DNA of 64,000 bases from an uncultured Azospirillaceae bacterium (GCA_964410325.1 CAYPFN010000004.1:1486-65485); one strand, 5' to 3'; positions 2,591-49,317 are shown, counted from the first letter of the stretch. The notes: generated from the letters alone by a model not told the origin. Program-made: numbers and translations.

Positions 2591-2620
2591 CAGAGATTTT
2601 ATCTAAAAGAGGACAAGCAT

Positions 2621-11770: not shown

Positions 11771-11771
11771 G

Positions 11772-12539
11772 TCATATCTCCTTTTCGCGTTTTAAAACTT
11801 CTTTGGCTAAATTAATATATGCTTGCGCGCCAGTACTTTTAAAATCATATATCAAAATTGGTTTGCCGTGTGAAGGAGCTTCTGAAATACGAACGCTCCG
11901 CGGAATTACCGTTTGATAAACCAAGTTGCCGAAATATTGACGGACATCTTTTTCCACCATGGAACTTAAGTTATTGCGGCGGTCAAACATGGTTAAGACA
12001 ATCCCCTGCACTTTAAGCGCCGGATTAAAGCTTTTCTTTATCTGATTGATATTCTTGACTAAATCCGTCAGCCCTTCCAGCGCCAAAAATTCGCATTGCA
12101 GCGGAATAATCACTGAATCTGAGGCAACAAGCGCATTAATGGTAATCAAATTTAAAGAAGGCGGACAATCGATTAAAATATAATCATATTTTTCTTTTAA
12201 CGATTGCAGCGCATGCTGTAAAACAAATTCACGTCTAGGCACATCAATCAATTCAATTTCTGCTCCAGCCAAGCCCGGCGTTGAAGGTAATAAATAAAAA
12301 TTCGGTATTTCACAGGCCTTAACGGCTTTTTGCGCTTCAAGCCCATTAATCAAAACATCATAAGAAGAATATTCGCAACTTTTTTTATCAACCCCCATTG
12401 ATGTTGTGGCATTACCCTGTGGATCAAAATCAAGCACCAACACATTTTTGCCAATAGCCGCCATGGCCGTAGCAATATTGATGGCTGTTGTGGTTTTGCC
12501 GACGCCACCTTTACGGTTGGCAACAGCGATTACTTTCAT
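11772..12539 (-). CDS. parA: Chromosome partitioning ATPase ParA
   Basis: 255 aa with the deviant Walker A KGGVGKTTT. Adjacent to parB with a 1-nt gap. Confidence 0.9.
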   Translation of the reverse strand: MKVIAVANRKGGVGKTTTAINIATAMAAIGKNVLVLDFDPQGNATTSMGVDKKSCEYSSYDVLINGLEAQKAVKACEIPNFYLLPSTPGLAGAEIELIDVPRREFVLQHALQSLKEKYDYILIDCPPSLNLITINALVASDSVIIPLQCEFLALEGLTDLVKNINQIKKSFNPALKVQGIVLTMFDRRNNLSSMVEKDVRQYFGNLVYQTVIPRSVRISEAPSHGKPILIYDFKSTGAQAYINLAKEVLKREKEI

Positions 12540-13159
12540 TTCTTTTTCCTCCTTAAATTTTCTAATAATAAAATTACCCCGTCGGCGGATTGTTCGTTTG
12601 GCTGAACCGACAAATTAAAATTCCAGTTTTTAAAAGCTTTTTTTAACTCGATTTGATATGACTTTCCTTTGGGAAAAATCAGTTTAGTCCGGCACGTTGT
12701 TAATTTAAATACATAGTTCAAAAGCTTATCAAGCGCCGCCACGGCGCGGGCAGTAACAACATCAGCTGGCGGTAGATCTAAACCTTCGGTGCGCGCATTG
12801 ATAACCGTCACATTGTTTAGATCAAGCTCATCCTTAACAGTCTTTAAATACAGTGTTTTTTTAGTTACGCTTTCAATTAACGTAAAACGCATAGATGAAC
12901 GAGTTTCCTGAGCCATGATTGCCAAAATCAGCGCTGGAAAACCCGCACCACTGCCTACATCATAAACAGAATTAACTTCTGGAGTTATATATTTGAAAAG
13001 ACCGGCAGAATCGGCAATATGACGCATCCAGACATCAGACAGGGAATTACGGCTGACCAAATTGAATTTTTCCTGCCAAACTTGCAATAGTCCGACAAGC
13101 TTTTCCAATTTTTGATATGTTTCACGTGAAACATTGTATGTCGTGATGAAATTATCCAT
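12536..13159 (-). CDS. rsmG: 16S rRNA m7G527 methyltransferase RsmG (GidB)
   Basis: 207 aa. SAM motif DVGSGAGFP. Synteny: parA-rsmG-mnmG. Confidence 0.85.
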   Translation of the reverse strand: MDNFITTYNVSRETYQKLEKLVGLLQVWQEKFNLVSRNSLSDVWMRHIADSAGLFKYITPEVNSVYDVGSGAGFPALILAIMAQETRSSMRFTLIESVTKKTLYLKTVKDELDLNNVTVINARTEGLDLPPADVVTARAVAALDKLLNYVFKLTTCRTKLIFPKGKSYQIELKKAFKNWNFNLSVQPNEQSADGVILLLENLRRKKK

Positions 13160-13236
13160 ACTGATTTTTATAAACCGTCATAAAGAATAGATAAACCGAA
13201 AACAGAAGTTATAAACATATATTTTTATGAAAACAT

Positions 13237-14076
13237 CTATTTTAAATGGAAACGATTGTTACAACCAAGCTCTTTTAATGTATTTTCCGCTTTATCAAAA
13301 GCATAGCCAAGTTCGTTAATGCTGTGAGCATCATCACTGATGACCAGTGGAACTTTTTGTTTAATTAACTCCCGTAAAATATAGTTTTCAGGAAAATAAT
13401 CATTGATTTTCCGCAAACCTTTGGTGCTTATTTCACAAGCCATATTTTGTCGATGTAAAGCATCCACAACCGCCAAACGTTCCGCAAACATTGGATATTG
13501 TGCATGCGCCGGAAGTTTACGCGCGTAATCTAAATGCGCCAAGAAAACAAACAATCCAGAATCGACGGCTTTAACCAAAGTCTGATAATGTCTGAGCAAA
13601 TAATTTTCCAATGTATCATCAGTTTCTTCGGGCTGCATTTTTTTATAATTGTAAATATCTATAACCTGAGAGCCGTTCTCATTCATGAAAAAATGATTTC
13701 CAGATATTAGATAATCATGATCAACTTTAGTCATAAAATTTTTAAACTGTTCCAACCAACCATCATATGTAAAAAAGTCAACCTCATAACCAAGATAAAC
13801 TTTTAAAGGATATTTTTTCACCGTCTTGCGGAAAAACTCAGCATTTTTTTGAAAAATGGGCAGAGCTTCTTGAAAATCAGAATGATAAATTTCCGCATGC
13901 CTTCGCGCTACCAACTTATCATAATAAGCACTTTGTCGAATATTTTTATGAACAATCAAATGATCAGTAATGCCGATTTCTTTCCAACCTAGCTTTACTG
14001 CCTGCTGTAGCATCTCTTCCAATGTGTTGTTTCCGTCAGAAAAAATCGTATGTGTATGATAACTAAACTGTTGCAT
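13237..14076 (-). CDS. PHP-domain histidinol-phosphatase family protein
   Basis: 279 aa. N-terminal YHTHTIFSDG is the PHP metal-binding HxH motif. A later DHL is also present. Confidence 0.55.
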   Translation of the reverse strand: MQQFSYHTHTIFSDGNNTLEEMLQQAVKLGWKEIGITDHLIVHKNIRQSAYYDKLVARRHAEIYHSDFQEALPIFQKNAEFFRKTVKKYPLKVYLGYEVDFFTYDGWLEQFKNFMTKVDHDYLISGNHFFMNENGSQVIDIYNYKKMQPEETDDTLENYLLRHYQTLVKAVDSGLFVFLAHLDYARKLPAHAQYPMFAERLAVVDALHRQNMACEISTKGLRKINDYFPENYILRELIKQKVPLVISDDAHSINELGYAFDKAENTLKELGCNNRFHLK

Positions 14077-14085
14077 AAAACAATC

Positions 14086-15945
14086 CTACTTCTTTAAATG
14101 TCCCAAAATAGCCGTAATTGCCGCTGGCGTTACGCCCGGTATACGCGAAGCTTCACCGATTGTCGATGGGCGGACTTTACTCAATTTATAAACCATTTCG
14201 CGTGATAAACCGCCAATTGATTGATAATCTATATCCTCACGGATTTTTAAGTTTTCATCTTTTTTAAAAACTTCTATATCTGAGAGCTGCCGTTTAATAT
14301 ATCCTGAATAACGCGATTCTATTTCAATTTGTTCATAAACTTTAACGTCGAACTCTTTGAGTTCAGGATATAAATTTAAAATTGTTTCACGTGAAACATC
14401 ACTATACCCCATTAAATGAAAAGCCGTACGCTTTGCACCGTCATGATTAAAAGCTATGCCGCTTTTTTCCATATCAACATAAGTAGCTTTCAGATTATGA
14501 GAAAGTGCACGGCAATTATCAATTGCCTGCTTTTTAGCTTTAAATACACTGTTTCTGTATTCTCCGACACAACCTATTTGATAACCCAAAGGCGTTAAAC
14601 GCATATCCGCATTATCTGAACGTAAAAACAAACGATATTCAGAACGTGATGTAAACATTCGATACGGTTCATCTACGCCTTTGGTAATCAAATCATCAAC
14701 CATAACACCAAGATATCCCTGGCTACGGTCCACGACAAACTCCCTACCTTTATTTTCAGCTTTTAAAGCGGCATTTACCCCAGCTAACAATCCTTGGGCG
14801 GCAGCTTCTTCATATCCTGTTGTACCATTAATCTGGCCGGCTAAAAATAGTCCTGAAACTTTTTTTACTTCAAGACAATGATTTAATTCCTGCGGGTCAA
14901 TATAGTCATATTCTATAGCATAGGCCGGACGTAAAATTTCAACATTTTCCAAACCTTTCATCGTATGAATAAATTGGTGTTGAATATCTTCAGGCAGAGA
15001 AGTTGAAATTCCGTTCGGATATACAACATCCGTATTTAATCCTTCCGGCTCTAAAAAAACCTGATGGCTGGTTCGCTCGGCAAATTTGACAAGCTTATCT
15101 TCAATACTTGGACAATAACGCGGACCGACACCAGTAATTAGTCCTGAAAAAAGCGCACATTTTGCAAAATTATCACGAATGATTTTATGCGTTTCTTCAT
15201 TAGTATGTGTGATATAACACTTAATTTGCGAATTATATATTTTATCTGTTAAATAAGAAAATGGCTCAGGATTTTCATCACCTTTTTGTTCTTCCAATAT
15301 GTTCCAATTAATAGTTTTTCCATTCAACCGCGCTGGAGTACCTGTTTTCAAACGTCCTACCTTCAGACCCAATTGCTTTAAATACGGTGTTATACCAGAG
15401 CAAGAAACATCGTTAAACCGACCACCGATTGAGGTTTGATGACCTATAAACATTATGCCGTTTAAAAAAGTTCCTGTTGTTAAAACAACAGCTTTAGCCA
15501 TAATTTGACTACCATCTGCCAAAATAATGCCGTTAATCCAGTTTATATTGTTTTCATTAATAATGTTTAAGCCTTCAACGGAAGTTTCCATAATTTCAAG
15601 ATTTTGTTGTTCTTGTAATACCTGAAACATATATTGTTTATATAAATCCCTATCCGCTTGGGCTCGCGGACCACGAACCGCTGGACCTTTTGAAGAATTA
15701 AGCATACGAAACTGTATGCCAGCTTTATCAATTACCCGACCCATCAAACCATCAAGAGCATCTATTTCCCGTACCAAATGCCCTTTACCGAGTCCACCAA
15801 TTGCCGGATTACAAGACATTTCACCAATTGTTGAAATTTTGTGAGTTATCAAAACAGTTTCTGCGCCTAAACGTGCTGCCGCTGCGGCTGCCTCACAACC
15901 AGCATGACCACCACCGACAACTATAACATCATAAATATTCTTCAT
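14086..15945 (-). CDS. mnmG: tRNA uridine 5-carboxymethylaminomethyl modification enzyme MnmG (GidA)
   Basis: 619 aa. FAD-binding [14 protein letters not shown], and a long region with the typical MnmG identity pattern. Confidence 0.9.
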
Positions 15946-16536
15946 TATTTTACCTTGTTAATTTTATCTGTATCATACGTGAAAATATCCATAATTCAAC
16001 AGAAAAATTTAAGCAAAAAAAAGAAAAAATTTGAAAATTAAATGACTTTATTTAATATGAGCTTATCGTCGTATGACAATAGTATCTGAAAAACATCATA
16101 CAAACAAACTCCTTGACAAGGAGAGTTCCAGAAATAAGGCTTAGCTTGAATAAGGGAGACTGTTGTTAGACTGTTTTTTAGCTCCTAATATTAAAAATTA
16201 AGATGGTTTTGTTTTTAACCAAAATAAAATTAGAGGAGCTTAGTAAAATAACAAAAGCACACTGGATTAAAGTTAACACGGCGTGAAATAAGGCAACTTT
16301 TATGGGAATTACGAAAAACCACTGATATTAAATTTATTTGGCAATGCAGTTAAGTATTCAGGAATGACATTTAGATTATTTAATCTTCTGTGGAAAAATT
16401 TTTATTAATCTGAGGGATTTGCTGTAGCTGACTACCTTTTATGACAAAATCATTAAAATTTATTTGGTGGATTTTAAGTAAGAATTTTCATCTCAATTTA
16501 AAATTCTGATGTTTATACATCTGAATTTTTCTTTTA

Positions 16537-17880
16537 TTATTTACCAATGCAAAAAGAACCAAAAACCTTATCCAAAACTTCATCAATTTCAATCCGACCA
16601 GTTATTTTCCCTAAAGCACGTACTGCAAGACGAATATCTTCTGCAGATAATTCTATTTCTTTATCAAAATTAAAACAGCGCAGATTTTCCAAACATTCTA
16701 TTAAGGCTTCACGATAGCGCTTCCGTGTTATCAATAGGTTTGAATCTGAAGTAAATTTTCGACCTATGTCAGCGGCTATTTTATCAATAAGCTTTTCCAA
16801 ACCTTGGTTATATTTAGCAGAAACCAACAAACATCCTTGATTTTCCAATATTGAACATTGTTCAAATGTTAATTTATCACATTTATTAGCAAGGTATAAG
16901 ATATTGTTTTGAGATTCTTTTTTGATATCGGTAAATATTTCGGGCGTGTCGGTGGAAGCATCGAAAAGAGCTAAAATCATATCGGCCGTACGAATTTTAT
17001 TAAAAGCTATTTCAATTCCCTGTTTCTCTATCGGATTATCAGAATTCCTTATGCCTGCCGTATCTGTAAATATAACTGGATAACCTTTAATATCAAGGTT
17101 AACATCGACAGCATCTCTGGTTGTTCCAGCTATTTCCGAAACAATAACAGCATTACGCTTAACTATAGCATTTAACAAACTCGATTTTCCCGCATTTGCT
17201 GGACCAGCAATAACAACTCTAAACCCTTCCCGCAATCTTTCGCCATAATTGGAAGTGTTTAAATGTTCATCTATTTCTTTAATTAATTTAAATACAGTGT
17301 TCAAATTAGACTCTTTTATATTTTCTGGAATGTTTTCTTCTGGAAAATCAATATAAGCCTCTAAATAAGCATATACTTTTAAAAGTTCTTCCCGCCAACT
17401 ATCATAAATTTTTTTTAACATTCCTTCCATTTGCCGCAAAGCATATTTACGTTGTGCAGCCGTTTCAGAATCTATTAAATCCGCCAGTCCCTCAGCTTCG
17501 GTTAAATCCATTTTTTGATTATAAAAAGCCCGACGCGAAAATTCTCCTGGTTCTGCAAGTCGAAAATTAGGCAGTTTAGCCAAAGAATCCAAAATAGCGG
17601 ATAAAACCGCCCGCGACCCATGACATTGTATCTCCACAACATCTTCACCCGTAAAAGAATAAGGTTTTTTAAAATACAATAATAATGAATTATCCAATGA
17701 TTCACGTGAAACAGAATCATAAATTTTTGTAAAATAAGCATATCTCGGCTTTAAATACAGTGTATCAAGTGGAGTCATCTGCTTGACAACTTTTAAAGCA
17801 TCTTTTCCAGAAATTCGAATAACAGCAACTCCTGATTTTCCATACACGGTGGAAAGTGCGTATATTGTTTTATTATCCAT
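16537..17880 (-). CDS. mnmE: tRNA modification GTPase MnmE (TrmE)
   Basis: 447 aa. G1 GPANAGKSSL, G3 DTAG, and a C-terminal CIGK. Confidence 0.9.
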   Translation of the reverse strand: MDNKTIYALSTVYGKSGVAVIRISGKDALKVVKQMTPLDTLYLKPRYAYFTKIYDSVSRESLDNSLLLYFKKPYSFTGEDVVEIQCHGSRAVLSAILDSLAKLPNFRLAEPGEFSRRAFYNQKMDLTEAEGLADLIDSETAAQRKYALRQMEGMLKKIYDSWREELLKVYAYLEAYIDFPEENIPENIKESNLNTVFKLIKEIDEHLNTSNYGERLREGFRVVIAGPANAGKSSLLNAIVKRNAVIVSEIAGTTRDAVDVNLDIKGYPVIFTDTAGIRNSDNPIEKQGIEIAFNKIRTADMILALFDASTDTPEIFTDIKKESQNNILYLANKCDKLTFEQCSILENQGCLLVSAKYNQGLEKLIDKIAADIGRKFTSDSNLLITRKRYREALIECLENLRCFNFDKEIELSAEDIRLAVRALGKITGRIEIDEVLDKVFGSFCIGK

Positions 17881-27692: not shown

Positions 27693-28505
27693 ATGCCGAA
27701 GCAAAAAGAAGAGAATAAATATTCTGTTTTGAAATCGGTTTTTTCCCCGTTTTTAAATATTGCGGATAATTTGGAACGTTTTTTATTGAGCGGTATTTTA
27801 TTTGCTTTAGGATTAACGCTTTTATCTTATATATTTAATCAGACTTATTTGTGTGTTATCAATGTTGAAGCCGCCAAATTTCTGTCTTGCGGGGGGTATC
27901 AACATTTATACGGCGTGTATATTTTTCTGAAAGTATTGATTTGCTCTTTGTTTATAACTGTATGGTGTTATTTAAGTACGCATGATGAACTTGAAAAAAA
28001 TATTTATAGGTATTTTTTAAAAAATTGGAAAAAGTTTTTTCATGATTTATGTTTTTTTATTTGTTTTGTTTTTCTTAATATACTACCGGTTATTTCCGGC
28101 GTGTTGCTGCTGTTTAGGGTACCAAATCCAAATTGGCAAATTGAACTTTTATATTTTACGTTTGTGGGACTTGGTTTTATAGTTCCTTTTATTGTGATAC
28201 GTTTTTATACAAATTTTGCCGAAGCTTTATCCGGTGAAGATTGGCGCAACTTTTCTATGGTTTGGCATCAGACATCCGGGAAAGGATTTAAAATTATTCT
28301 TTCGACAGGTTTGTTTTTTCTGATAGAAATGATTTTACTTCTAAGCGTTAATTCCAGTTTTCGTGCGCCGAGCAATATGCCACCGTTGTTTTATAATTTT
28401 ATTGCGGAATTTATTTTTAATCTGATGACGTTATTGATGATTGCTTTGATTGTTAATTTTATGCAAGAGCAGAAAGCACAAATTGTTGAAAACAGCAGAG
28501 TATAA
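27693..28505 (+). CDS. Polytopic membrane protein, hypothetical (270 aa)
   Basis: Several hydrophobic helices. Its start abuts the dnaE stop (translational coupling). Confidence 0.45.
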   Translation: MPKQKEENKYSVLKSVFSPFLNIADNLERFLLSGILFALGLTLLSYIFNQTYLCVINVEAAKFLSCGGYQHLYGVYIFLKVLICSLFITVWCYLSTHDELEKNIYRYFLKNWKKFFHDLCFFICFVFLNILPVISGVLLLFRVPNPNWQIELLYFTFVGLGFIVPFIVIRFYTNFAEALSGEDWRNFSMVWHQTSGKGFKIILSTGLFFLIEMILLLSVNSSFRAPSNMPPLFYNFIAEFIFNLMTLLMIALIVNFMQEQKAQIVENSRV

Positions 28506-31750: not shown

Positions 31751-32944
31751 TTGAATGTAGCAAATATGGCTTTAAATAACCCTAAAGAATTGTATTTAAA
31801 AATTTTTAAAAGAGTAACAATCATTGTTTTACTTTTAGTGATTATGGTTGCTAATATTCATGAATTTAAGCGTCTGGTTTCAACGAATCCTGAAAAAATA
31901 ACGGAATATCAGTCGCCAAGAGATATTTATGCAGAAATTAGAAATCCAGTTATATTGATTACATATTATACGGTTTCAGATAAAATGCCGAAAATCGCCA
32001 TTTTGCCGGAACAACATTTTGATAATGTGATACAGAGCTTGGGTAAAAATTTTAAAAAAGGACAGATACAGAAGATTTTTATAGGGATGCTAGCTGGTGT
32101 AGCAAAAGAGAAGGTTGATTTTTTTAATAAAGAAGATTTATTTGATGGCGTGCCTTTCAAAATTTTTACAGATCAAGATATTTTACAATCAAAGCAAAAA
32201 GATTTTGTCTCTCTGCTTGAAACTGATAGAAATTTTCTAATTTTAATCGGAAATTTAAAAGATGATAAGTTTGCCGAAATGTTAAAAATGGTGGAAACAA
32301 CGGCGGTTAATTTGAATTTACGGCCGGTGGCCAAAGATTTATTAGCCATCCAGAAAGTTTTTTTAGAGAAAAAGAGCCAAGGTTTAGATACTTTGAATTT
32401 GGAACAACAGTATGCTAATTTAGAGACGTTTATTAAAGATCAGCAAGAATCATTACAGAAGTTGATAAAACAAGCCTTAGATAATGATTTAGATAATGTT
32501 GGGGAAATTAAAAAGAACAGGCATTTTGATGATAAGGCCGCTGTTTATGTTTTAGCTGTTTCCGAAGAAGAAAATTTATTTCGGGAATATGGAGAGGTGA
32601 GTTTTGAAAAATCTGTTGCTAAGGGGATTTCTTTTTATGTTGCGGAAGCAAAAAAAGACTTTCCGGAATCTGATATAAAGATTTTTCTGTTAACAGAAAG
32701 CGAACGGAAAAATTATGCCGATGAAAAAGAATTCGAAGCGGCTTTGCAAAGAGGATACGGCATTGTTTTGACAGTTGGGAATAGAAGAGGTATTTTATTG
32801 CCCTGTTTTTGGGAAACATACCCGAATAAGAAAGAATTTATTAAACAATTAAAAATAAAATCGGGAATAAGTCCAGATTATTGGTCAGAAGAAATAAATA
32901 TTTATTATTTTAAAGCCGCGGAGATACCATATCATGAAAATTGA
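31751..32944 (+). CDS. Membrane-anchored hypothetical protein with AMMECR1-like C-terminal segment (397 aa)
   Basis: N-terminal TM VTIIVLLLVIMVANI. The C-terminal ..GNRRGILLPCFWE..KEFIKQLKIKSGI loosely resembles the AMMECR1 C-terminal consensus. Overlaps the next gene by 11 nt. Confidence 0.4.
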   Translation: MNVANMALNNPKELYLKIFKRVTIIVLLLVIMVANIHEFKRLVSTNPEKITEYQSPRDIYAEIRNPVILITYYTVSDKMPKIAILPEQHFDNVIQSLGKNFKKGQIQKIFIGMLAGVAKEKVDFFNKEDLFDGVPFKIFTDQDILQSKQKDFVSLLETDRNFLILIGNLKDDKFAEMLKMVETTAVNLNLRPVAKDLLAIQKVFLEKKSQGLDTLNLEQQYANLETFIKDQQESLQKLIKQALDNDLDNVGEIKKNRHFDDKAAVYVLAVSEEENLFREYGEVSFEKSVAKGISFYVAEAKKDFPESDIKIFLLTESERKNYADEKEFEAALQRGYGIVLTVGNRRGILLPCFWETYPNKKEFIKQLKIKSGISPDYWSEEINIYYFKAAEIPYHEN

Positions 32945-34652
32945 CGGATATGAATTAAACTTTAGTGAAGAACAGCTTGATTTTATATTAAGTAAAAAAA
33001 CACGCACAGTTGAATTGATATCTAAAGATTTTGAAGGTTATCAAAATCTGCCGGCAGGGGATAAAAAAGCAATTGAGCATTTGATTAATGCCGCAAACAT
33101 GATTAATGATGTTGCTTTAGAACAAGACCATCCGTTAAATTTACGCTTAAAGAAAGGGCTGGAAAGCGCTTTCTTAAAGAGTTCTTGGGCAGGAAAAGCT
33201 TTAGAGCTTTTTAATAGTTTGAACGGTGTTATAGGGTTTAATGGCATAGACAGAGAGCCTATACGAATTTTTAAAGAAGTCAGTTTGTTGCCAGGGAGAA
33301 ATTTTTATCCAGAAGATTTATCTGTTGAAGAATTTCATCGTATTCTTATTACGATGGGAAACAGAGGAGAAATTGATAAAATTCGAAAAATTTTATCAGC
33401 TCGAACAATGGTTCGCCGCCAAGGCGATAGCTTAAAAGCGATAGATTATACCGAGTATTTTTCAGAGGCTTTTTCCGATATTGCCAATGAGTTGGAAGCG
33501 GCCGCATATTATTGTACGGAACAGGAGTTTAAAGATTATCTTGGCTGGCAGGTTCAGGCGCTGTTGCAAAATAATCCAGATATGGATATGCTGGCGGATA
33601 AACATTGGGCAAAATTGCAAAATACTAATTTAGAATTTACGATTTCCAGAGAAAATTATGAAGATGAAATAAGCGGGACGGTTTATAATAATCCAGAACT
33701 TATTAAGATTCTTGAAGAAAATAATATTCATGTGGTAGCCAAAGACACATTCGGCTGCCGGGTTGGTATTGTCAACAAACCAGCAACAGAAGATATTCTA
33801 TTATCGAAAAAAATGCTACCGATCCTTGCCAAATGGATGCCTTATAATGAACAGTATACACAAGATAACGTTGATGAAGAAAATTTGCGGCAAAGCATGG
33901 TTGATGTTGATTTAATTGCCTTAACCGGCGATTATGCCATGTGCCGTGGCGGAATTACAGCGGCGCAGAATTTGCCGAATAACGATAAAATTTCTGTGCA
34001 AACTGGTGGTGGACGGCGCAATGTTTATCATCGGCAGGTGCGCTTTAGCACAGATGAAGAAAGAGATAAAAAGCTTTTGGATAAGTTGGTGGATCCCGCT
34101 TTGCATACATATGTTGATAAGTCAAAAGTGATTGTTTTTGTGGTAGGACATGAAAATGGCCATTCTCTTGGTCCGGGAAGTGTTTATCAGAATTCTTTAG
34201 GCATGTATAAGCATATAATTGAAGAGCATAAGGCAAACGTTGTTTCCATTGCTTCAATTACAGAAGCGGCAAAGCAAGGAGCAAATTTTGATAGGGAAAC
34301 ATTGCGCAAGATTTATACGTCTTGGATTGTCGGAAATTTATTTTTGCGGGCCAAACCTCTTTTATCACAAGCGCACAGGGTGGCTGATTTGATAGAATTT
34401 AATTATTTATTGGAAAGTAAAGCCATTTGGTTTGATGATATGAAAAAAATTCATATTGATTTTGATATTATCAATATGACAATGTATAAATTGTTAGAGG
34501 AAACTATACGAGTACAGCTTTCAAAATCTGTAGAAACAGCCAGTGAATTTATCAATCGTTGGGCAATATGGGGAGAATGGTCACGGTATATCGCTGAAAT
34601 ACAACAATCGTTAGGCGTTAAACCTTATATAAAAATTATAACTAAATTTTAA
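32934..34652 (+). CDS. Hypothetical 572-aa protein with HExxH motif (possible zinc metallopeptidase, M49/DPP-III-like?)
   Basis: VFVVGHENGHSLGPGS contains HENGH. A downstream IIEEHKA is weakly reminiscent of the M49 second motif, but the spacing differs. Confidence 0.45.
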   Translation: MKIDGYELNFSEEQLDFILSKKTRTVELISKDFEGYQNLPAGDKKAIEHLINAANMINDVALEQDHPLNLRLKKGLESAFLKSSWAGKALELFNSLNGVIGFNGIDREPIRIFKEVSLLPGRNFYPEDLSVEEFHRILITMGNRGEIDKIRKILSARTMVRRQGDSLKAIDYTEYFSEAFSDIANELEAAAYYCTEQEFKDYLGWQVQALLQNNPDMDMLADKHWAKLQNTNLEFTISRENYEDEISGTVYNNPELIKILEENNIHVVAKDTFGCRVGIVNKPATEDILLSKKMLPILAKWMPYNEQYTQDNVDEENLRQSMVDVDLIALTGDYAMCRGGITAAQNLPNNDKISVQTGGGRRNVYHRQVRFSTDEERDKKLLDKLVDPALHTYVDKSKVIVFVVGHENGHSLGPGSVYQNSLGMYKHIIEEHKANVVSIASITEAAKQGANFDRETLRKIYTSWIVGNLFLRAKPLLSQAHRVADLIEFNYLLESKAIWFDDMKKIHIDFDIINMTMYKLLEETIRVQLSKSVETASEFINRWAIWGEWSRYIAEIQQSLGVKPYIKIITKF

Positions 34653-39943: not shown

Positions 39944-41104
39944 TTAAGCTGCTTTGGCCGAATATTTATAAGCAAACTTATTCATTGTTTCAATGATATA
40001 AGACTGTTCGTCTTCTTCCAAATACGGATGCATAGGAATGCTTAAAACGGTTTTGGATAATTTTTCGCAGACAGGAACCGAACGGGTATTCCATTTTTTA
40101 TAAGCTGTTTGGGTGTTAACCGGGCGCGGATAGTAAGCGCCACAGGGAATTCCTGCTTTTTTTAAATGTGACATGAGCTCATCGCGATGTTCGCAATTGA
40201 TGGTATACAAAGCGTAAGCCGAACGACAATTATCCAAAATCCGTTGTTTGCCAAAATAGGGGCTTAATTCCAAATCATAGCGTTTGGCAATACGGTAGCG
40301 GTCTTCCAGTTCTTTATCAAAAATTGTCAGTTTTTGTAAAATAACGGCTGCTTGGAAAGAGTTCATGCGTCCGGTCATACCCAAACGGATATTATCATAA
40401 TGATCATTGGGGCTCATGCCATGGACGCGACAGGATTTAACCAGTTCATTTTCTTCATTATTATTGGTGAATACGGCACCGCCGTCGCCATATCCAGCCA
40501 AAGGTTTTGTCGGATAAAAAGACGTAGCACTCATGTCGGAAATGGAGCATGCTTTTTTGCCATGATAAATCGAACCATAGGACTGACAGGCGTCAGACAA
40601 AACTTTCATGCCGTTTTCATGAGCGATGTTGGTGATTTCGTCCAATTCGCACGGAGAACCGAAAATATCAACAGGAATAACCGCTTTCAAATTTAGTTTT
40701 CCTTCTTTTTTGACTTCAGCAATGGCGCGTTTCAGATCTTCAGGATCCATGTTGTAGGTGTCTGGCTTGGAATCAACAAAAACAGGCGTTGCGCCAAGCA
40801 AGACAGGGGCTTCCGCAGAAGATACAAAAGTAAACGATGAAACAAAAACGGCATCGCCAGGCTTAACATCCCAAGCCATTAAAGCCAGTGTTAAAGCATC
40901 GGTGCCAGAACCGCAGGTCGAGCAATATTTTGTACCGGAATATTCAGCCAGTTTTTGATCGAGTTCTTTAGTTTCTGGACCTTGGCAATAAGCGCCATGG
41001 TCTAAAATTTTTTCTAAAGCCGTCATGATTTTCTCTCGACCGATAACGCTTTGCGATGAGGCACAGTCAAACAAATTGATTTTTTTAGAAGGTTTTTCTA
41101 TCAT
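39944..41104 (-). CDS. DegT/DnrJ/EryC1/StrS-family PLP-dependent sugar aminotransferase
   Basis: 386 aa with a conserved lysine region SFYPTKPL. Confidence 0.8.
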   Translation of the reverse strand: MIEKPSKKINLFDCASSQSVIGREKIMTALEKILDHGAYCQGPETKELDQKLAEYSGTKYCSTCGSGTDALTLALMAWDVKPGDAVFVSSFTFVSSAEAPVLLGATPVFVDSKPDTYNMDPEDLKRAIAEVKKEGKLNLKAVIPVDIFGSPCELDEITNIAHENGMKVLSDACQSYGSIYHGKKACSISDMSATSFYPTKPLAGYGDGGAVFTNNNEENELVKSCRVHGMSPNDHYDNIRLGMTGRMNSFQAAVILQKLTIFDKELEDRYRIAKRYDLELSPYFGKQRILDNCRSAYALYTINCEHRDELMSHLKKAGIPCGAYYPRPVNTQTAYKKWNTRSVPVCEKLSKTVLSIPMHPYLEEDEQSYIIETMNKFAYKYSAKAA

Positions 41105-41305
41105 TTTTTTATCCTTTAAGCAAAATTCAAACTGAGGCTGATATTACGGCACTTAATCTGTTGATGCAACACACAAGATATTTCTTGATTGTAACAAAAA
41201 ACAATCCATACGAAAATATCACCATGAATAATTATATTTTTGTTGATTTAATTGCCATAATTGCTATATTTGAGGCAACTTAAATAATAATTATAAGGAT
41301 GTGTT

Positions 41306-42100
41306 ATGAAAAAAATTGCCTTGTCGGTGCTTTTGGCTTTGAGCCTGACCGCCTGTGCGACCAATCCGGATGGCAGCAAACTTAATCCTGAAGATGAAGA
41401 ATCGGGGTTGGAGTACTATAATCGTGCCATGTTTAATTTTAATTATCAGTTTAATAAAAAGGTTATGAAGCCGGTGGGCGAAGGCTATAAAGAAGTTACC
41501 AACCAATTTTTCCGTGACCGGGTCAGCGCTTTTTTTGATAATCTGGAAGAGCCAGCTTATTTTGCCAATAACCTTTTTCAGGGGGAATTTAAAAACAGCG
41601 GTATTTCAGTCGGGCGCTTTTTTATTAACTCAACTCTAGGGCTTGCCGGAATGTTTGATGTGGCTGTTGGTTGGGGGCTTGAAAAGAAAGCCAATAGTTT
41701 TGATAAAACAATGGCAAAATATTGCGTGCCGGACGGTCCGTTCTTTATTGTGCCGATAGTTGGTCCGGCAACGCCGCGATATGTTGTTGGCTGGACGGCT
41801 GATGCTTATGCCAGCCCGCTGTTTTGGGCTTTGATAGATGTTGATGATAGCGGAGTTGATGCGGCTGTGATTGGCGCAACGACGCTGAAATATATTAATA
41901 TTTATGCGGAAAATTTAAGTTTGCTTGAAAGCTTGGAAGAAGGGTCTGTTGATTTTTATGCAACGGTCAAGTCGGCCTTTTTGCAAAATCGGCAAAAATT
42001 TGTCAGCATATGTGCCGAAACAGGAACTGATAATGAAGTTTTGAGCTATGATTTTGATTTTGGTTATGATGATGCTTTTGATGATGAAATAGAATTTTAA
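41306..42100 (+). CDS. mlaA: MlaA/VacJ-family outer-membrane lipoprotein
   Basis: Lipobox LSLTAC, and a VacJ-like core (FNFNY..DRV..P.). Confidence 0.7.
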   Translation: MKKIALSVLLALSLTACATNPDGSKLNPEDEESGLEYYNRAMFNFNYQFNKKVMKPVGEGYKEVTNQFFRDRVSAFFDNLEEPAYFANNLFQGEFKNSGISVGRFFINSTLGLAGMFDVAVGWGLEKKANSFDKTMAKYCVPDGPFFIVPIVGPATPRYVVGWTADAYASPLFWALIDVDDSGVDAAVIGATTLKYINIYAENLSLLESLEEGSVDFYATVKSAFLQNRQKFVSICAETGTDNEVLSYDFDFGYDDAFDDEIEF

Positions 42101-42118
42101 TTACAAGGAGATGGAAAT

Positions 42119-42715
42119 ATGCGCAAAGTTTTAGGTTTAATATTGACGATGGCGCTGTTCGTTGCTGGAACGGCAAAAGCTGATGTTGATGCGCAAAAAG
42201 CGGAAGATTTTATTAAGGAAGTAACAAAACAGGGAATAGAAGAAATTATTAATTCTGATGTGCCACTGGAAGAAAAAGATGCCAGATTTGCTAAGCTTTT
42301 TAATGAATATTTGGATTTAGATTTTATCGGGCGATTTGTTTTAGGTAGATATTGGAAAACCTCAAGTTCCAAACAACGAACGGACTTTATAGACGTTTAT
42401 CGAGAGATGAATATTAAAACTTGGTCCAAACGCTTTGATGAATTTAAAGGAAAAACCTTTGTTTTCAAAGGGACATCGCCTTCCAGTTCAGCTAATCAAG
42501 TTTTTGTAAACACTGAAGTGTCGATGGATCAGGGCGCTCCAGCAAAAGTGGCCTGGCGGGTTAAGGAAACGGATGGAAAGTTTAAAGTTGTTGATATTGT
42601 TATTGAAAATGTCAGTCTGGCGATTACTGCCCGCAATGAATATACGGCATATATTAAGAAATCTCCGGATGGAATTGACGGTTTGATCGCCAATCTGCGA
42701 CAAAAAATCCAATAA
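42119..42715 (+). CDS. MlaC/Ttg2D-like periplasmic phospholipid-binding protein
   Basis: 198 aa with a signal peptide. Size and position next to mlaA fit. Confidence 0.5.
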   Translation: MRKVLGLILTMALFVAGTAKADVDAQKAEDFIKEVTKQGIEEIINSDVPLEEKDARFAKLFNEYLDLDFIGRFVLGRYWKTSSSKQRTDFIDVYREMNIKTWSKRFDEFKGKTFVFKGTSPSSSANQVFVNTEVSMDQGAPAKVAWRVKETDGKFKVVDIVIENVSLAITARNEYTAYIKKSPDGIDGLIANLRQKIQ

Positions 42716-42867
42716 AAGCGTAACGGCATAAATTATTGCCGATGGTCTGTTGTTGCCGGAAAATTTCCGATGAGGTTTATAAAATATTTTTGGGCTATTT
42801 TTCTGGAGATTTTAACTATAAATGAATAATTGACATTTTGTGCTTTTTTAGGTAAACTAATAATAGT

Positions 42868-43860
42868 ATGTATAATTATTTTTTGTCGGGGGCTGTCATG
42901 CTTAGTTTGAAAAATTTTTCCTTAATTTTGGTCGGAATACTGTTTTGGAGCGTTTCTGCCGAGGCTCGAGTTTGTTTTTTAGCCGGAAGTGATGATGATG
43001 AAAACTGTTTGACCTCTATAGGAGATTTTGTCGAGGATGGATGTTCGGGGTATTTATCTTGTGACATTCCAATTATTGGCGCATCAACTTGCGCTAACAG
43101 TGAGCAGTCTCTTTACCAGCCGGAAGATTGTTGTTCGAACGGCTCTTATTTTGAACGTTGTGACGGTGAGGGGCAGGTTTGTAACGGCGTCAGTTGTAAG
43201 GGCTATGATGCAAACGGCGACATTTACGAATCTTGTGAAATTGGATACTGTAGCTGTGATAGCTCTTATTCGGAAACTTGTTCGGGAAATGGTTTAACCG
43301 GTGATGGCGAAGCTTGTAATGGTTTGTATCAGAGCTGTAAATGTTCTGATGAATATTATGCTTGTGATGCTGAAGCTGAAGGTAGTGGCTCTTCTTGTTA
43401 CGACGACACACAAAAATATACTTCTTGTACATGTCCGGATGCTGATGGAAGCACATGGGTGTCCGATGCAAGCGATTGTTGTTTTGGTTACTCTAAATAT
43501 TGTGTTAATCGTCCTAGTGGCCGTATTGTTTATGAGTGTAACCTAGTAACGTTTGAGAATTGTTCCTGTGGATATACTTATGCATCAGGTACTTCATCAT
43601 GCATAAACGGCTGTACTGATGAAGATTATGAATATGTCGGGGTTCCAGAGAATGTGACTTGTAAAGATCTTCTCAACGGGCTTAGCACAACCTGCGGCAA
43701 CAATTGTACTTGTAAAAGCGGATATTGGGATTTTACGGAAAGTTGTGAACAACAGGTGTCTACAGTTTGTACCAATATAGGATATACAGATACTTCGTGC
43801 AGCGGTGAATGGATTGCTTGCCCATATGATGCTTCAGCGAAGAAATGTCTGAATATATAA
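42868..43860 (+). CDS. Cysteine-rich secreted protein (330 aa; ~45 Cys), hypothetical
   Basis: Signal peptide (MLSLKNFSLILVGILFWSVSAEA; likely start at ~42898). The mature part is dominated by C, G, S, D, E, Y, T with recurring CSG/CxC/SC spacings. Confidence 0.55.
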   Translation: MYNYFLSGAVMLSLKNFSLILVGILFWSVSAEARVCFLAGSDDDENCLTSIGDFVEDGCSGYLSCDIPIIGASTCANSEQSLYQPEDCCSNGSYFERCDGEGQVCNGVSCKGYDANGDIYESCEIGYCSCDSSYSETCSGNGLTGDGEACNGLYQSCKCSDEYYACDAEAEGSGSSCYDDTQKYTSCTCPDADGSTWVSDASDCCFGYSKYCVNRPSGRIVYECNLVTFENCSCGYTYASGTSSCINGCTDEDYEYVGVPENVTCKDLLNGLSTTCGNNCTCKSGYWDFTESCEQQVSTVCTNIGYTDTSCSGEWIACPYDASAKKCLNI

Positions 43861-44124
43861 AAATAGTGTAAATGTTTCTGTTTTTAGATGCATGGTAAAA
43901 ACAATGTTTTAAAGGCATGAGGCAAGCCTTGTCCTTTCTCTTGAGTATGGGGAAGGGGAATGGTAACAGTGTTGTATTCGTTCGCAGCAATAAAATTATT
44001 TGTTGGAATGGTTTTATCCGAGGTGTTTCATAGCTTATAAGGAAATGGCGCATAATATTCTTGCATTTTTATAGAAAATGTGATATATATCTATTAGTTT
44101 TTTTGGAAAAGGTATGGATTTGCT

Positions 44125-44484
44125 ATGATTATCAATAGTAATGATTCTTTGCAAAGAAGTATTTTGACTAATAAATGTTTTTATCAAACAACAGCACAGA
44201 TTATGCATGATTTTGAGCAAAAAGGTTATGCAAACTCTGCTGATGAGACAGCTAAAGTAATTGCTGCTTATCATGGTATCATACAGAAAAAAACAAAAAA
44301 TAACTATAGTAAGGATTATAACGAGGCGTTTGATAAGATTGATAGTGCAATTAAAAGCATGGCAAATAAGGTTTTTTATATTTATGATAAAAAAAGTTTT
44401 GATCGTGCTTATCAATCTTTTCAAGATTTTGATTATATCAGTGCCATTATCCGACGTCAGAGAATGAAAAAAAATCAATTATAA
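44125..44484 (+). CDS. Hypothetical protein (119 aa)
   Basis: ORF followed by a hairpin terminator (atccgg ttaaatg ccggat tttt) at ~44486-44512. Confidence 0.4.
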   Translation: MIINSNDSLQRSILTNKCFYQTTAQIMHDFEQKGYANSADETAKVIAAYHGIIQKKTKNNYSKDYNEAFDKIDSAIKSMANKVFYIYDKKSFDRAYQSFQDFDYISAIIRRQRMKKNQL

Positions 44485-44602
44485 CATATCCGGTTAAATG
44501 CCGGATTTTTGATTTGTGAACTATTTGATATTCAACATTGCAATAATAGATTATTGTCGTTACACTCCATGTATAATTTTAATTTAGTGTACGCGAGGGA
44601 AT

Positions 44603-45580
44603 ATGAAACAAATATCAGTTATCGGTTGCGGTCGCTGGGGAACTTTTTTGGGCTGGTATGCCGCTAATTACTGTGTTGATAGTGTTGTTCTATATGATAT
44701 TCCGACATCGCCTAACTTTATAGAGCTACAGGATACACGGCGTAATTCGTATTTGGCGTTAAGCGATAATATGGTTTTAACGTCGGATTTAAATAAGATT
44801 TTGCATAATGAGTATATAATTATTTCTATTGGGTGCCAGCATTTACGAGAATTAGCACGCCAACTTAATGGATATAATTTAGAAAATAAAAACTTTTTGT
44901 TGGCGATGAAAGGGTTGGAAGAACCAAGCGCTAAAATTTTGATTGATGTTTTTCGAGAGGAAATCAAACAGAATATACATGTATCCTGTTTGGGCGGGCC
45001 GGGACATGTGCAGGATTATATTAAAAAAGTTCCTTCCTGTGTGGTTGTTGACAGTTATGAAGAAGAAAACAAGGATCGTTGGATTAGGTTGTTGCAGAGT
45101 GATTTGATTCGTTTTTATTATGGTAATGACGTTATCGGTAATCAGATTGGTGCAGCTTTAAAAAATGTTATCGGCATTGCTGCCGGTATTTTGGACGGAT
45201 TGGAATGGTATGGTTTGAAAGGCGCTTTAATGGCGCGGGCGCCAGTTGAAGTTGGCCGTTTGATTAAGCATTTTGGCGGAAATCCTTTTACAGCTTATGG
45301 GTTGGCGCATTTAGGCGATTATGAGGCAACATTGTTTTCAAAACACAGCCATAATCGTATGTACGGTGAGATGTTTGCTAAAGGCGAACGTTTCGGTAAA
45401 CTGGCGGAAGGTGTGGCAACTCTTAAAGCAGTTAAAATTATTGCCGATAGAGAAAAAATTGATATGCCTATTTGCCAAGCTTTGTATAAGGTTGTTTATG
45501 AGGATGCCGATATTAAAGCTACAATCAAAGAGATGTTTGAGCGGGGGTTGAAAAAGGAATTTGATTATATCAGCGCTTAA
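44603..45580 (+). CDS. NAD(P)H-dependent glycerol-3-phosphate dehydrogenase-like protein (divergent GpsA homologue)
   Basis: 325 aa. N-terminal IGCGRWGT (compare GpsA GAGAWGT), KNVIGIAAGILDG (GpsA KNVIAIAAGI.DG), and the MPI region. Confidence 0.65.
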   Translation: MKQISVIGCGRWGTFLGWYAANYCVDSVVLYDIPTSPNFIELQDTRRNSYLALSDNMVLTSDLNKILHNEYIIISIGCQHLRELARQLNGYNLENKNFLLAMKGLEEPSAKILIDVFREEIKQNIHVSCLGGPGHVQDYIKKVPSCVVVDSYEEENKDRWIRLLQSDLIRFYYGNDVIGNQIGAALKNVIGIAAGILDGLEWYGLKGALMARAPVEVGRLIKHFGGNPFTAYGLAHLGDYEATLFSKHSHNRMYGEMFAKGERFGKLAEGVATLKAVKIIADREKIDMPICQALYKVVYEDADIKATIKEMFERGLKKEFDYISA

Positions 45581-45585
45581 GGAAA

Positions 45586-45622
45586 GTTGTTAAAAAACCG
45601 GCTTTGCGCCGGTTTTTTATGG
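45586..45622. terminator. Hairpin terminator between gpsA-like and ctrA (bidirectional)
   Basis: aaaaaaccggctttgcgccggttttttat. A near-identical copy is at 51303-51336. Confidence 0.55.
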
Positions 45623-45650
45623 TTGCAACTCCTTATTTAAAAGATTGATA

Positions 45651-46337
45651 TCATTTAACCTCATCCGGATCGCGTAGAACGTAACCGCGGCCCCAGACGG
45701 TTTCAATATAATTTTTACCACCAGAGGCTTTTTCTAATTTTTTACGCAGCTTACAGATGAAGACATCAATAATTTTTAATTCAGGTTCATCAATACCGCC
45801 ATAAAGATGGTTTAAAAACTGATCTTTGTTTAAGGTAGAACCTTTACGCAAAGACAATAGCTCCATAATACCGTATTCTTTACCAGTTAGATGTAATGCT
45901 TTGCCACAGACGGTTACCGTTTGTGTATCAAGATTGACTTCAACATCGCCAGTTTTAATAATGGAGTTGGAATGTCCTTTTGAGCGACGGACAATAGCCT
46001 GAATACGCGCTAAAAGTTCGGATTTGTCAAAAGGTTTGGTCAGATAGTCGTCCGCGCCATAACCTAAACCCTTAACCTTTTTATCTGGTTCGCTTAAACC
46101 GGAGAGAATTAAAACAGGAGTGTTGACTTTGGCATTGCGCAGACTTTTTAGAACTTCATAACCATTCATATCCGGAAGCATCAGGTCTAGAATAATGATA
46201 TCATAATCGTATAATTTGCCGATTTCGAGTCCATCTTCGCCCAAATCGGTCGCATCAACAATCATGCCTTCTTTTTTTAACATTATTTCAATGTTTTGCG
46301 AGACGGCATAATCATCTTCTACTAACAATACTCTCAT
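45651..46337 (-). CDS. ctrA: Cell-cycle response regulator CtrA (OmpR family)
   Basis: 228 aa. Receiver domain with D51-type [11 protein letters not shown], and a winged-helix C-terminus ending in the GRGYVLRD-type motif. Confidence 0.85.
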
Positions 46338-47665: not shown

Positions 47666-48448
47666 TTAACGTAGATTTATGCCGTATTTCTTTACTAAGC
47701 TTTTCAGAGCCTCTTTAGTGATCTTATCTTGATACCATTGTTGTCTTTCTTCTTTAAAAAATTCATTTCCGGCCGTCATACAGTCAGGGCAAAAGGGAGA
47801 TATATTGTGTTTTTTTGCGAGTAATCGGGCTCTTGTTATATCGCTAAAATCGCCATCAGATCTTTGTTGCATAATGCACATCTCGTCTGGATCTGTACAA
47901 TGTGGGCCTAAATTCTCTTCAGAATTTTTTCTTCTTTCGTAAGTAAGATTAATAACATGTCCAAACTCGTGCATTAATACTGTTTTGAAGTTTTCGCGAT
48001 CAATCAGCTTGCCGTTTTGATTTGAAAAGCGGTAGGCAGAAACAACACAGCCAATCCTCTCTTCTCCTATACCTAGACAATATGCATCCTTATCATAAGG
48101 ATATAAATCATCTTTTGTCAACAAGATTGTAAATTGTGGAATTTGTTGATTTGTCGGGTCTTTCTGCATTGTTTCAAGTAAGGTGCTTGCATTTAGCCGA
48201 TGATAATTAGGGTCTGGTCGGGCATTTTCAATATGCCAACGAGTGCTTTTATATGGAGCCAGATAAAGCTTCCCATTTTGAGAATAGATATACCCATGAT
48301 CTTTCCATGCACCTAAATTAGTAATTGGATAATCATTTTTATATTCAGGGAAAAACCCCATGATTTCGCTAATTGCTTCGACAGCGACATAGTTTACTTC
48401 AGGATCAAGCCCATCTTGGCTAACTATATAAATATCTCTCTGTTTCAT
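47666..48448 (-). CDS. Archaemetzincin-like (peptidase M54-like) zinc metallopeptidase
   Basis: 260 aa. HEFGHVINL followed by C..DPDEMCIM and CPDC, reminiscent of the archaemetzincin HExxHxxGx3Cx4CxMx17CxxC signature. The spacings are not identical. Confidence 0.5.
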   Translation of the reverse strand: MKQRDIYIVSQDGLDPEVNYVAVEAISEIMGFFPEYKNDYPITNLGAWKDHGYIYSQNGKLYLAPYKSTRWHIENARPDPNYHRLNASTLLETMQKDPTNQQIPQFTILLTKDDLYPYDKDAYCLGIGEERIGCVVSAYRFSNQNGKLIDRENFKTVLMHEFGHVINLTYERRKNSEENLGPHCTDPDEMCIMQQRSDGDFSDITRARLLAKKHNISPFCPDCMTAGNEFFKEERQQWYQDKITKEALKSLVKKYGINLR

Positions 48449-48624: not shown

Positions 48625-49317
48625 ATGCTCCATAATTTCATAAGGATCTTTTTGTTGTTTATTTTGCAGCATTCAACTTCTCCATATTTATTTATATCAA
48701 GATACTTAAATAATTTTAAAGATGATTACCATGCATCCAGACGATTATATGCGATGTCTATAGCATCTTTGGTTATAAATTTATTGAATGCTAAGAATAA
48801 TTCGGATGAACTGAAAAAGAAAAATATAAAGATGCTCGATGTAATTCAAGAGAGAACTTATTATAACGCAGATGGTAGTTTAAGAAAAGAAAGTATTTTT
48901 TATCACCCGGAAATTATAAAATTCAAGATTCAAATGAATAAATTAGGAGGAGGATATTTTGATGATGCTGTTATATGTCGTTGCGTAGAGAGTTTTAAGC
49001 TTGATAGTGGTATGAGTACATTTAGCGAAGGACAGCCCATTATTTCTCCTGATGGAAAAATTTTAGATTGGGAAAAGGCATCAAATTCTGCTATATTTAA
49101 ATTTGCCGTTAGGGATATGGTAATTGATATGTATTCCCGTGAGATGGAACGTTATAAAAAACTCAATGAGGATGAGAAAATGAGAGAAGTTAGATATTTT
49201 ATCAATAAAGAGTGCGAAGAAACAATAAATACGAAAATAGCTGAAAGTTGCTCAGAAAGACAGGGCTCTTCGGTTGTTGGCTTATTTATGGATAAAGGAG
49301 GAAAAGGCATCGCGTAA
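48625..49317 (+). CDS. Hypothetical protein; true start probably an internal Met (MSIASLV.. or MLDVIQ..)
   Basis: The first ~40 codons look like a translated AT-rich promoter. The remainder is non-repetitive with a Cys pair (CRCVESF). No motif. Confidence 0.35.
   Translation: MLHNFIRIFLLFILQHSTSPYLFISRYLNNFKDDYHASRRLYAMSIASLVINLLNAKNNSDELKKKNIKMLDVIQERTYYNADGSLRKESIFYHPEIIKFKIQMNKLGGGYFDDAVICRCVESFKLDSGMSTFSEGQPIISPDGKILDWEKASNSAIFKFAVRDMVIDMYSREMERYKKLNEDEKMREVRYFINKECEETINTKIAESCSERQGSSVVGLFMDKGGKGIA

Follow-up and report, generated by a model that had tools for sequence, protein, structure and literature searches.

The window analysed in our study is a stretch of 64,000 nucleotides from an uncultured Azospirillaceae bacterium, and it carries on its plus strand the open reading frame (ORF) 42868-43860, which an initial annotation had reported as encoding a highly cysteine-rich secreted protein. 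The composition of this ORF sets it apart from its neighbours: cysteine accounts for 11.5% of the residues encoded from position 42868, against a median of 1.4% and a next highest value of 3.8% among the 53 window ORFs of at least 150 aa. The window itself is core chromosome, with mnmE-mnmG-rsmG-parA-parB, rho, dnaE, eno, serS, holA, lptE, sodB, pssA and psd.

Gene model and regulatory signals

The start codon had to be revised. The ATG at 42868, from which the initial annotation read a protein of 330 aa, is missing in 8 of 10 orthologous loci, whereas the ATG at 42898 is present throughout and mostly coincides with the N-terminal methionine of the database homologues. A putative ribosome-binding site, GGGGG (42888-42892, plus strand), lies 5 nt upstream of ATG 42898, and GGGGG, GGAGG or GGGGA occupies this position in every orthologous locus. 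Further upstream, on the same strand, we predicted a sigma-70-type promoter at 42830-42858, composed of TTGACA (42830-42835), a 17-nt spacer and TAAACT (42853-42858), which in our promoter scan fits the consensus at 10 of 12 positions. In 10 of 10 orthologous loci, the TTGACA box precedes the start by an equivalent distance, the surrounding intergenic DNA having diverged, and a -10-like hexamer is kept 17 nt downstream of the box across these loci. Taken together, the conserved ATG, ribosome-binding site and promoter and the starts of the homologues define the gene as 42898-43860, with its own predicted promoter at 42830-42858; judging from this comparison of loci, the true start is almost certainly ATG 42898 and not ATG 42868, and the corrected coding sequence (plus strand) comprises 320 codons and a stop codon. 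The alternative-frame ORFs at 43028-43546, which had been put down to skewed composition, do exist and lie within the frame that is under purifying selection.

Genomic context and distribution

A scan of one genome per species returned 10 loci, all of them in metagenome-assembled genomes (MAGs) of uncultured Alphaproteobacteria and several explicitly from gut samples. The Cys-rich gene is present in one copy per genome, in an invariant order that consists of a degT-like aminotransferase gene (opposite strand), mlaA, mlaC, the Cys-rich gene, a conserved 119-aa ORF and gpsA; the order mlaA-mlaC-Cys-rich gene is kept in all 10 MAG loci and also in the close strain L014. One locus, L007 (CAVBCV010000002.1), is labelled as a Lachnospiraceae bacterium and has the same alphaproteobacterial degT-mlaA-mlaC-Cys-rich-orf119-gpsA order; its label is probably the result of mis-binning or mislabelling. 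A tblastn search of plasmids and phages matched no relative, and a mobile-element origin is therefore not indicated.

The 119-aa ORF (44125-44484, plus strand), directly downstream of the Cys-rich gene, has no signal peptide and belongs to no Pfam or NCBIfam family; its identity across the MAG loci is 82-89%, with a dN/dS of 0.02-0.09 (0.21 against the near-identical strain L014). A terminator-like hairpin at 44488-44506, after this ORF, is the only terminator-like site of the region and, since none lies between the Cys-rich gene and the 119-aa ORF, the two may be co-transcribed. The Rfam search of positions 41000-46000 yielded two sub-threshold matches only, AgrB at 45589-45658 (minus strand; 32.1 bits against a gathering score of 40) and the S15 leader at 44115-44226 (plus strand; 22.3 bits against a gathering score of 39.5), both probably due to chance.

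Other parts of the window are recorded here for completeness. The cluster mnmE, mnmG (gidA), rsmG (gidB), parA and parB occupies 10886-17880 on the minus strand; in Alphaproteobacteria this cluster usually adjoins the replication origin, and the window may therefore be near oriC. At 1874-6070 (plus strand), genes for an ABC ATPase and, after it, for a 1149-aa protein that combines ABC_transp_aux, DUF7088 and DUF4340 domains form an uncharacterised ABC-associated envelope system. Four further ORFs fall in no Pfam family at the thresholds used: 27693-28505 (plus strand, 270 aa), 32934-34652 (plus strand, 572 aa), 47666-48448 (minus strand, 260 aa) and 48625-49317 (plus strand, 230 aa).

Conservation, selection and divergence of the gene

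Relatives of the encoded protein were collected at three depths. A word-indexed search of 5.8 billion proteins returned 17, the same search with an alignment as query returned 29, and the exhaustive one, an HMM scan of 1.84 billion cluster representatives, returned 162 at E <= 1e-3, about 30 of which represent clusters of full-length orthologues. Against the orthologues, dN/dS is 0.07-0.17, which indicates purifying selection. An independent assembly, SRR7039261 (L014), contains the gene intact, with 11 nucleotide and 5 amino-acid differences; a frameshift, which the initial annotation had raised as a concern, is absent from this second reading of the gene. On these comparative grounds, the Cys-rich ORF is a real gene, conserved in uncultured gut Alphaproteobacteria.

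Conservation is accompanied by rapid change. The identity of orthologues to the window is 38-61% for the Cys-rich gene, against 59-93% for five flanking genes, and its dN is 2-3 times that of its neighbours. Compared with the close strain L014, its dN/dS of 0.31 falls within the range of the neighbours, a value that derives from 11 nucleotide differences only. Over its full length the gene shows no trace of diversifying selection, dN/dS being well below 1. The orthologues range in length from 309 to 1543 aa because a variable number of Cys modules is appended to a conserved 300-aa core; the window protein is a short form.

Signal peptide and mature N-terminus

As the initial annotation had proposed, the protein begins with a predicted Sec signal peptide of the signal peptidase I type (42898-42966, plus strand; MLSLKNFSLILVGILFWSVSAEA). 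Read from the sequence, its layout is MLSLK, NFSLILVGILFW and SVSAEA, with cleavage before R; that is, a Lys-containing n-region, a hydrophobic core of 11-12 residues and A-E-A at positions -3 to -1. By inspection, these are the features of a Sec and signal peptidase I substrate. The signal peptide is the sole strongly hydrophobic segment of the protein, and across the orthologues its sequence varies, the n/h/c layout and the A-x-A site being kept.

The mature chain opens with RVCFLAG (42967-42987, plus strand), the start of an acidic 12-residue stretch that extends from Cys3 to Cys14. Residues R1, V2, C3, F4 and L5 are invariant in 26 orthologues, and we refer to the motif [RK]-[VI]-C-F-L as the head. 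Of 150 superfamily representatives, 35 carry a relaxed form, [RKGN]-[VI]-C-[FWL]-L, nearly always at residue 23-24 and directly after A-x-A. The invariant cysteine is not preceded by a lipobox of the form L-[AS]-[GA]-C, the residues before it being E-A-R-V. Our search of the window protein for features of outer-membrane translocation or anchoring found no beta-barrel, no lipobox and no known C-terminal sorting signal; since no such domain is recognisable, the default location of the protein is the periplasm.

Cysteine content and predicted fold

The mature protein has 297 aa, of which 38 (12.8%) are cysteines, somewhat fewer than the roughly 45 (about 14%) first estimated. Its most abundant residues are S (38), C (38), G (31), D (26), Y (22), E (21) and T (21), its pI is about 4.05 and its GRAVY is -0.38, in agreement with the G/S/D/E/Y/T-rich composition of low hydrophobicity described before. 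It contains 31 aromatic residues and lacks His, Met and CxxC altogether. The local patterns that had been said to recur were also found (CSG three times, SC.C twice, C.NG twice and Y..C six times), together with five CxC and two CC.

Several observations bear on the state of these cysteines. In the alignment of 26 orthologues, the Cys columns are 99% conserved, compared with 57% for the other columns. The number of cysteines in the mature chain is even in 31 of 34 orthologues, which span 36 to 158 cysteines (binomial p = 3.8e-7, a value to be read with the caveat that the sequences are related). Additional cysteines are gained as pairs: one pair at about mature positions 139 and 151 in P0006-P0010 and P0026, and a second at positions 173 and 194, both in P0012. 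Parity, near-invariance and paired gains support intramolecular disulfides and argue against metal binding. We infer with good support, as the most economical reading of these sequence patterns, that all 38 cysteines would form 19 intramolecular disulfides, which favours the many-disulfide claim of the initial annotation over its metal-sequestering alternative. A pattern search for CxxC thioredoxin-fold proteins found no Dsb candidate within the 64-kb window.

The AlphaFold2 models consist of beta-hairpins only, with a pLDDT of about 90 over roughly mature residues 30-200 and low confidence at residues 219-263.

Modular architecture

Behind the RVCFLAG head follow the first 100 or so mature residues, two copies of a unit that we call module A, a family-specific middle part (residues 180-282, counted from Met 42898 like the module positions below) and a C-terminal module B, directly after which the window protein ends. 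Module A is a 27-aa GxG..C.GxY..CxC unit with the consensus xYxxTC-x5-GxG-xxC-xGKYxSCxC. Copy 1 lies at 43264-43344 (plus strand; residues 123-149, SYSETCSGNGLTGDGEACNGLYQSCKC) and copy 2, which is more diverged, at 43354-43434 (plus strand; residues 153-179, YYACDAEAEGSGSSCYDDTQKYTSCTC). Scored with a module A HMM built only from remote proteins, copy 1 reaches 33.7 bits, the highest score among 1000 composition-matched shuffles being 6.0; copy 2 scores 7.9 bits (i-E 0.2) and keeps the Cys/GxG/Y/CxC register of copy 1. In six orthologues, copy 2 holds one additional Cys pair. In remote proteins, module A is repeated in tandem up to about 10 times, and the module A region of the window protein aligns with the repeats of P0041, a protein with an Lcl_C domain, at 44% identity (pairwise E = 5e-10).

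Module B, a C-terminal LGYT..C..CP[FY]D..KKC unit with the consensus C-x5-7-C-xxLGYT-x3-6-C-x4-8-CP[FY]D-x3-K-x-C, is found at 43744-43848 (plus strand; residues 283-317, CEQQVSTVCTNIGYTDTSCSGEWIACPYDASAKKC). An HMM made from 53 remote proteins gives it 36.7 bits, the best shuffle scoring 8.3, and in many remote relatives the module stands directly after the signal peptide. A third unit, module C (C.DGYA..DCG..G..GW...C.KC..K.CP.G), makes up the C-terminal extensions of the long orthologues and is absent from the window protein.

We define the family by a signal peptide, the [RK]-[VI]-C-F-L head, one or more module A units, a C-terminal module B and the conservation of nearly all cysteines. 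The alignments, the motif census and the independent module HMMs all place the window protein in this multi-module Cys-rich family, and modules A and B recur in other secreted proteins, including proteins from other bacteria. As far as alignments and profiles can tell, the window protein is a mosaic of small Cys modules that fits no described family.

The genes of three module-sharing relatives lie in unrelated housekeeping neighbourhoods (hflKC-degP-holC, mreBCD-rodA, and beside tamB), which suggest no shared system. Two peculiarities were noticed among the relatives. In several small module-B proteins (P0053, P0083, P0121, P0137, P0138, P0143, P0144 and others), odd N-terminal extensions recur ('...SLRGAYLYATWQSQQNKIIGRDPRV', '...SYSDLFRVSIDPRVKPEGD') that look like translated repeat elements or mis-called starts. 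Downstream of the gene for the module-A protein P0016, five consecutive genes for proteins of about 245-257 aa (L011, 8063-11867) have no Pfam match except one faint NTP_transf_2, and the next gene encodes a 504-aa protein whose nucleotidyltransferase matches are faint; this run may be a tandem paralogue array.

Searches for known families and folds

The protein had been described as having no recognisable family, and our searches bear this out. The window protein matched no Pfam-A (hmmscan) or NCBIfam family at E <= 1 and nothing in PHROGs or PADLOC at E <= 0.1. Profiles of the whole family, of module A and of module B returned matches at chance level only among PDB sequences (for the whole-family profile, one with E 0.06), and the Foldseek search of PDB folds gave no significant match; its non-significant top matches include CD40, 4-1BB, HVEM, Notch EGF and Pfs25. 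The Cys spacings of the protein, whose comparison with known patterns had been proposed, likewise correspond to no Pfam profile at E <= 1. The EGF-like, TNFR Cys-rich, granulin, metallothionein, chlamydial OMP3/OMP6 and planctomycete YTV families are, we assume, all represented in Pfam, and the protein belongs to none of them by the Pfam-A and NCBIfam searches. In the protein databases, no source names any member of the RVCFL-head family, and our literature search found no description of it.

Comparison with known systems

The Lcl_C/DUF1566 domain (PF07603) is the sole recurrent Pfam domain among the module-sharing proteins, present in 11 of about 128 that were scanned. Lcl, an adhesin secreted by the type II route, binds glycosaminoglycans and is held on the cell surface via its N-terminus (PMC11162425). 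Adhesins of the Lcl type are, like the window protein, Sec-exported and modular, and because tandem module A copies co-occur with Lcl_C domains in remote relatives, module A occupies the place of Lcl's repeat stalk; the N-terminal retention of Lcl may likewise offer an analogy for the invariant RVCFL head. Unlike Lcl, the window protein has neither an Lcl_C domain nor collagen repeats, and the 27-aa module is the only link between them; to our knowledge, Lcl is not disulfide-rich. A second link to the cell surface is the 2120-aa relative P0058, in which dozens of Cys modules of types B and C precede an autotransporter beta-domain (PF03797). This passenger indicates that related Cys modules can be extracellular; the window protein differs from it in having no beta-domain and no module C.

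In eukaryotes, EGF-like repeats and TNF-receptor Cys-rich domains are likewise tandem modules of about 30-40 aa with 4-6 cysteines, and they share with the window protein a secreted, elongated character built of beta-hairpins only, which in our case are predicted. One remote member matches RANK_CRD_2 and another matches cEGF below threshold. Among Gram-negative bacteria, the chlamydial envelope proteins OmcA and OmcB are also Cys-rich and exported, and are thought to be stabilised by disulfides. The chlamydial proteins are cross-linked between molecules; one of them, OmcA, is a lipoprotein, and the Cys content of OmcB is only about 4%. By the Pfam search, neither is similar in sequence to the window protein, whose even cysteine count argues for intramolecular pairing instead. 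Metallothioneins and Csp resemble the window protein in being rich in Cys and in containing CxC and CC motifs, and differ from a protein that is Sec-exported, 297 aa long, rich in aromatic residues and predicted to be all-beta, with no His, Met or CxxC and an even number of cysteines. As a single-copy gene, it is also unlike the typical families of variable surface antigens.

Discussion

Our study describes a conserved gene whose product would be exported and densely cross-linked, and we tentatively favour, at a little less than an even chance, the reading that it is a hyper-disulfide-bonded secreted or surface scaffold, possibly adhesin-like. The protein would be exported by Sec and cleaved after AEA, with the mature chain starting at RVCFLAG, and oxidation of its 38 cysteines in the periplasm would produce 19 disulfides and a rigid, elongated, protease-resistant ladder. 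The folded protein might then leave the periplasm, for example by a type II-like route, and stay on or near the cell surface, where in the gut it could form a scaffold or stalk, mediate contact in the manner of an adhesin or have a protective function. Its conserved Cys framework may carry rapidly diverging surface loops, sister species may add a variable number of C-terminal modules, and the invariant RVCFL N-terminus could be a retention or sorting element. A surface protein or host-interaction factor, as the initial annotation had suggested, is thus a plausible interpretation, because the gene diverges fast, its modules are common to Lcl_C proteins and one autotransporter, and it is restricted to gut bacteria; against this counts the fact that those proteins share nothing but modules with the window protein.

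A resident of the periplasm or envelope, that is, a structural or protective protein or a multi-headed protease inhibitor made disulfide-rich for survival in the gut and not exposed at the surface, is an unlikely but serious alternative. Apart from the Sec signal, nothing that would target the protein to the outer membrane was detected, its single-copy core gene is under purifying selection and lies amid the envelope and lipid genes pssA, psd, mlaA, mlaC and gpsA, and small disulfide modules in tandem are a typical trait of protease inhibitors. These points are set against the occurrence of the modules in extracellular Lcl_C proteins and in an autotransporter, a divergence much faster than that of the neighbouring periplasmic MlaC, and the lack of similarity to inhibitor families in Pfam or the PDB. 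The position of the gene has a further possible implication, namely that its product cooperates with the Mla lipid-transport system, whose genes lie immediately upstream. We regard this as improbable: the conserved mlaA-mlaC-Cys-rich order is its argument, and because synteny in genomes so closely related extends over everything from degT to gpsA, adjacency to mla says little. Moreover, the gene follows a gap of 182 nt and is preceded by a conserved promoter of its own, the module-sharing relatives lie in the three unrelated neighbourhoods named above, and we know of no Mla system that includes such a Cys-rich component.

Three other explanations concern the cysteines themselves or the reality of the gene. 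The invariant cysteine of RVCFL, three residues after A-x-A and at a fixed spacing from the hydrophobic core, might be the lipidation site of an outer-membrane-anchored lipoprotein processed at a non-canonical lipobox (A-R-V-C). This is very improbable, since positions -3 to -1 would be A-R-V, with Arg at -2 and Glu at -4, unlike L-[AS]-[GA]-C; MlaA of the same genome carries the canonical lipobox LTAC, the A-x-A sequence is an ideal signal peptidase I site, and the even parity counts the RVCFL cysteine as disulfide-paired. A periplasmic protein that binds or stores metal, or that acts as a thiol redox buffer, in the manner of metallothioneins or Csp, would account for 12.8% Cys, the CxC and CC motifs and the very acidic chain, and we give it slightly less credence still. 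The absence of His, Met and CxxC and the 31 aromatic residues are unlike a metal-storage protein, the cysteines are even in number and gained pairwise, the confidently predicted core consists of all-beta hairpins and not of a helical bundle or a metal-thiolate cluster, and no metallothionein or Csp family was matched at E <= 1. We therefore disfavour the metal binder, the non-canonical lipoprotein and the Mla accessory alike. That the ORF is spurious or decaying, a product of skewed composition, deserves practically no credence: its odd composition and the overlapping alternative-frame ORFs are all that speak for it, and the comparative data refute it, with about 30 orthologue clusters that keep the cysteines invariant, dN/dS of 0.07-0.17, a conserved promoter and ribosome-binding site, and an intact copy in an independent assembly.

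Seen in general terms, the exported scaffold that we favour is of a known kind (secreted Cys-rich repeat or scaffold proteins), with new modules and a new conserved N-terminal motif. A bolder proposal, which we consider rather doubtful, is that it represents an undescribed class of bacterial extracellular scaffold built from new disulfide mini-modules, with [RK]-V-C-F-L as a new sorting or surface-retention signal. If this were true, such scaffolds would contain 19 disulfides in the window protein and up to about 79 in the 1543-aa orthologue, and the signal would be common to a wider set of secreted proteins.

Exported bacterial proteins normally have few disulfides. With about one disulfide per 16 residues, as deduced from the cysteine pattern, the window protein would be an extreme substrate of oxidative folding, and its relatives reach 158 cysteines. 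Very stable disulfide mini-domains of this sort would be of interest as scaffolds for protein engineering, and at least three small Cys modules and the N-terminal motif are absent from database descriptions. The gene thus founds an undescribed family of modular Cys-rich proteins in uncultured gut Alphaproteobacteria, and its product is a candidate for a stable surface or secreted structure with which these bacteria may face the host, phages or proteases.
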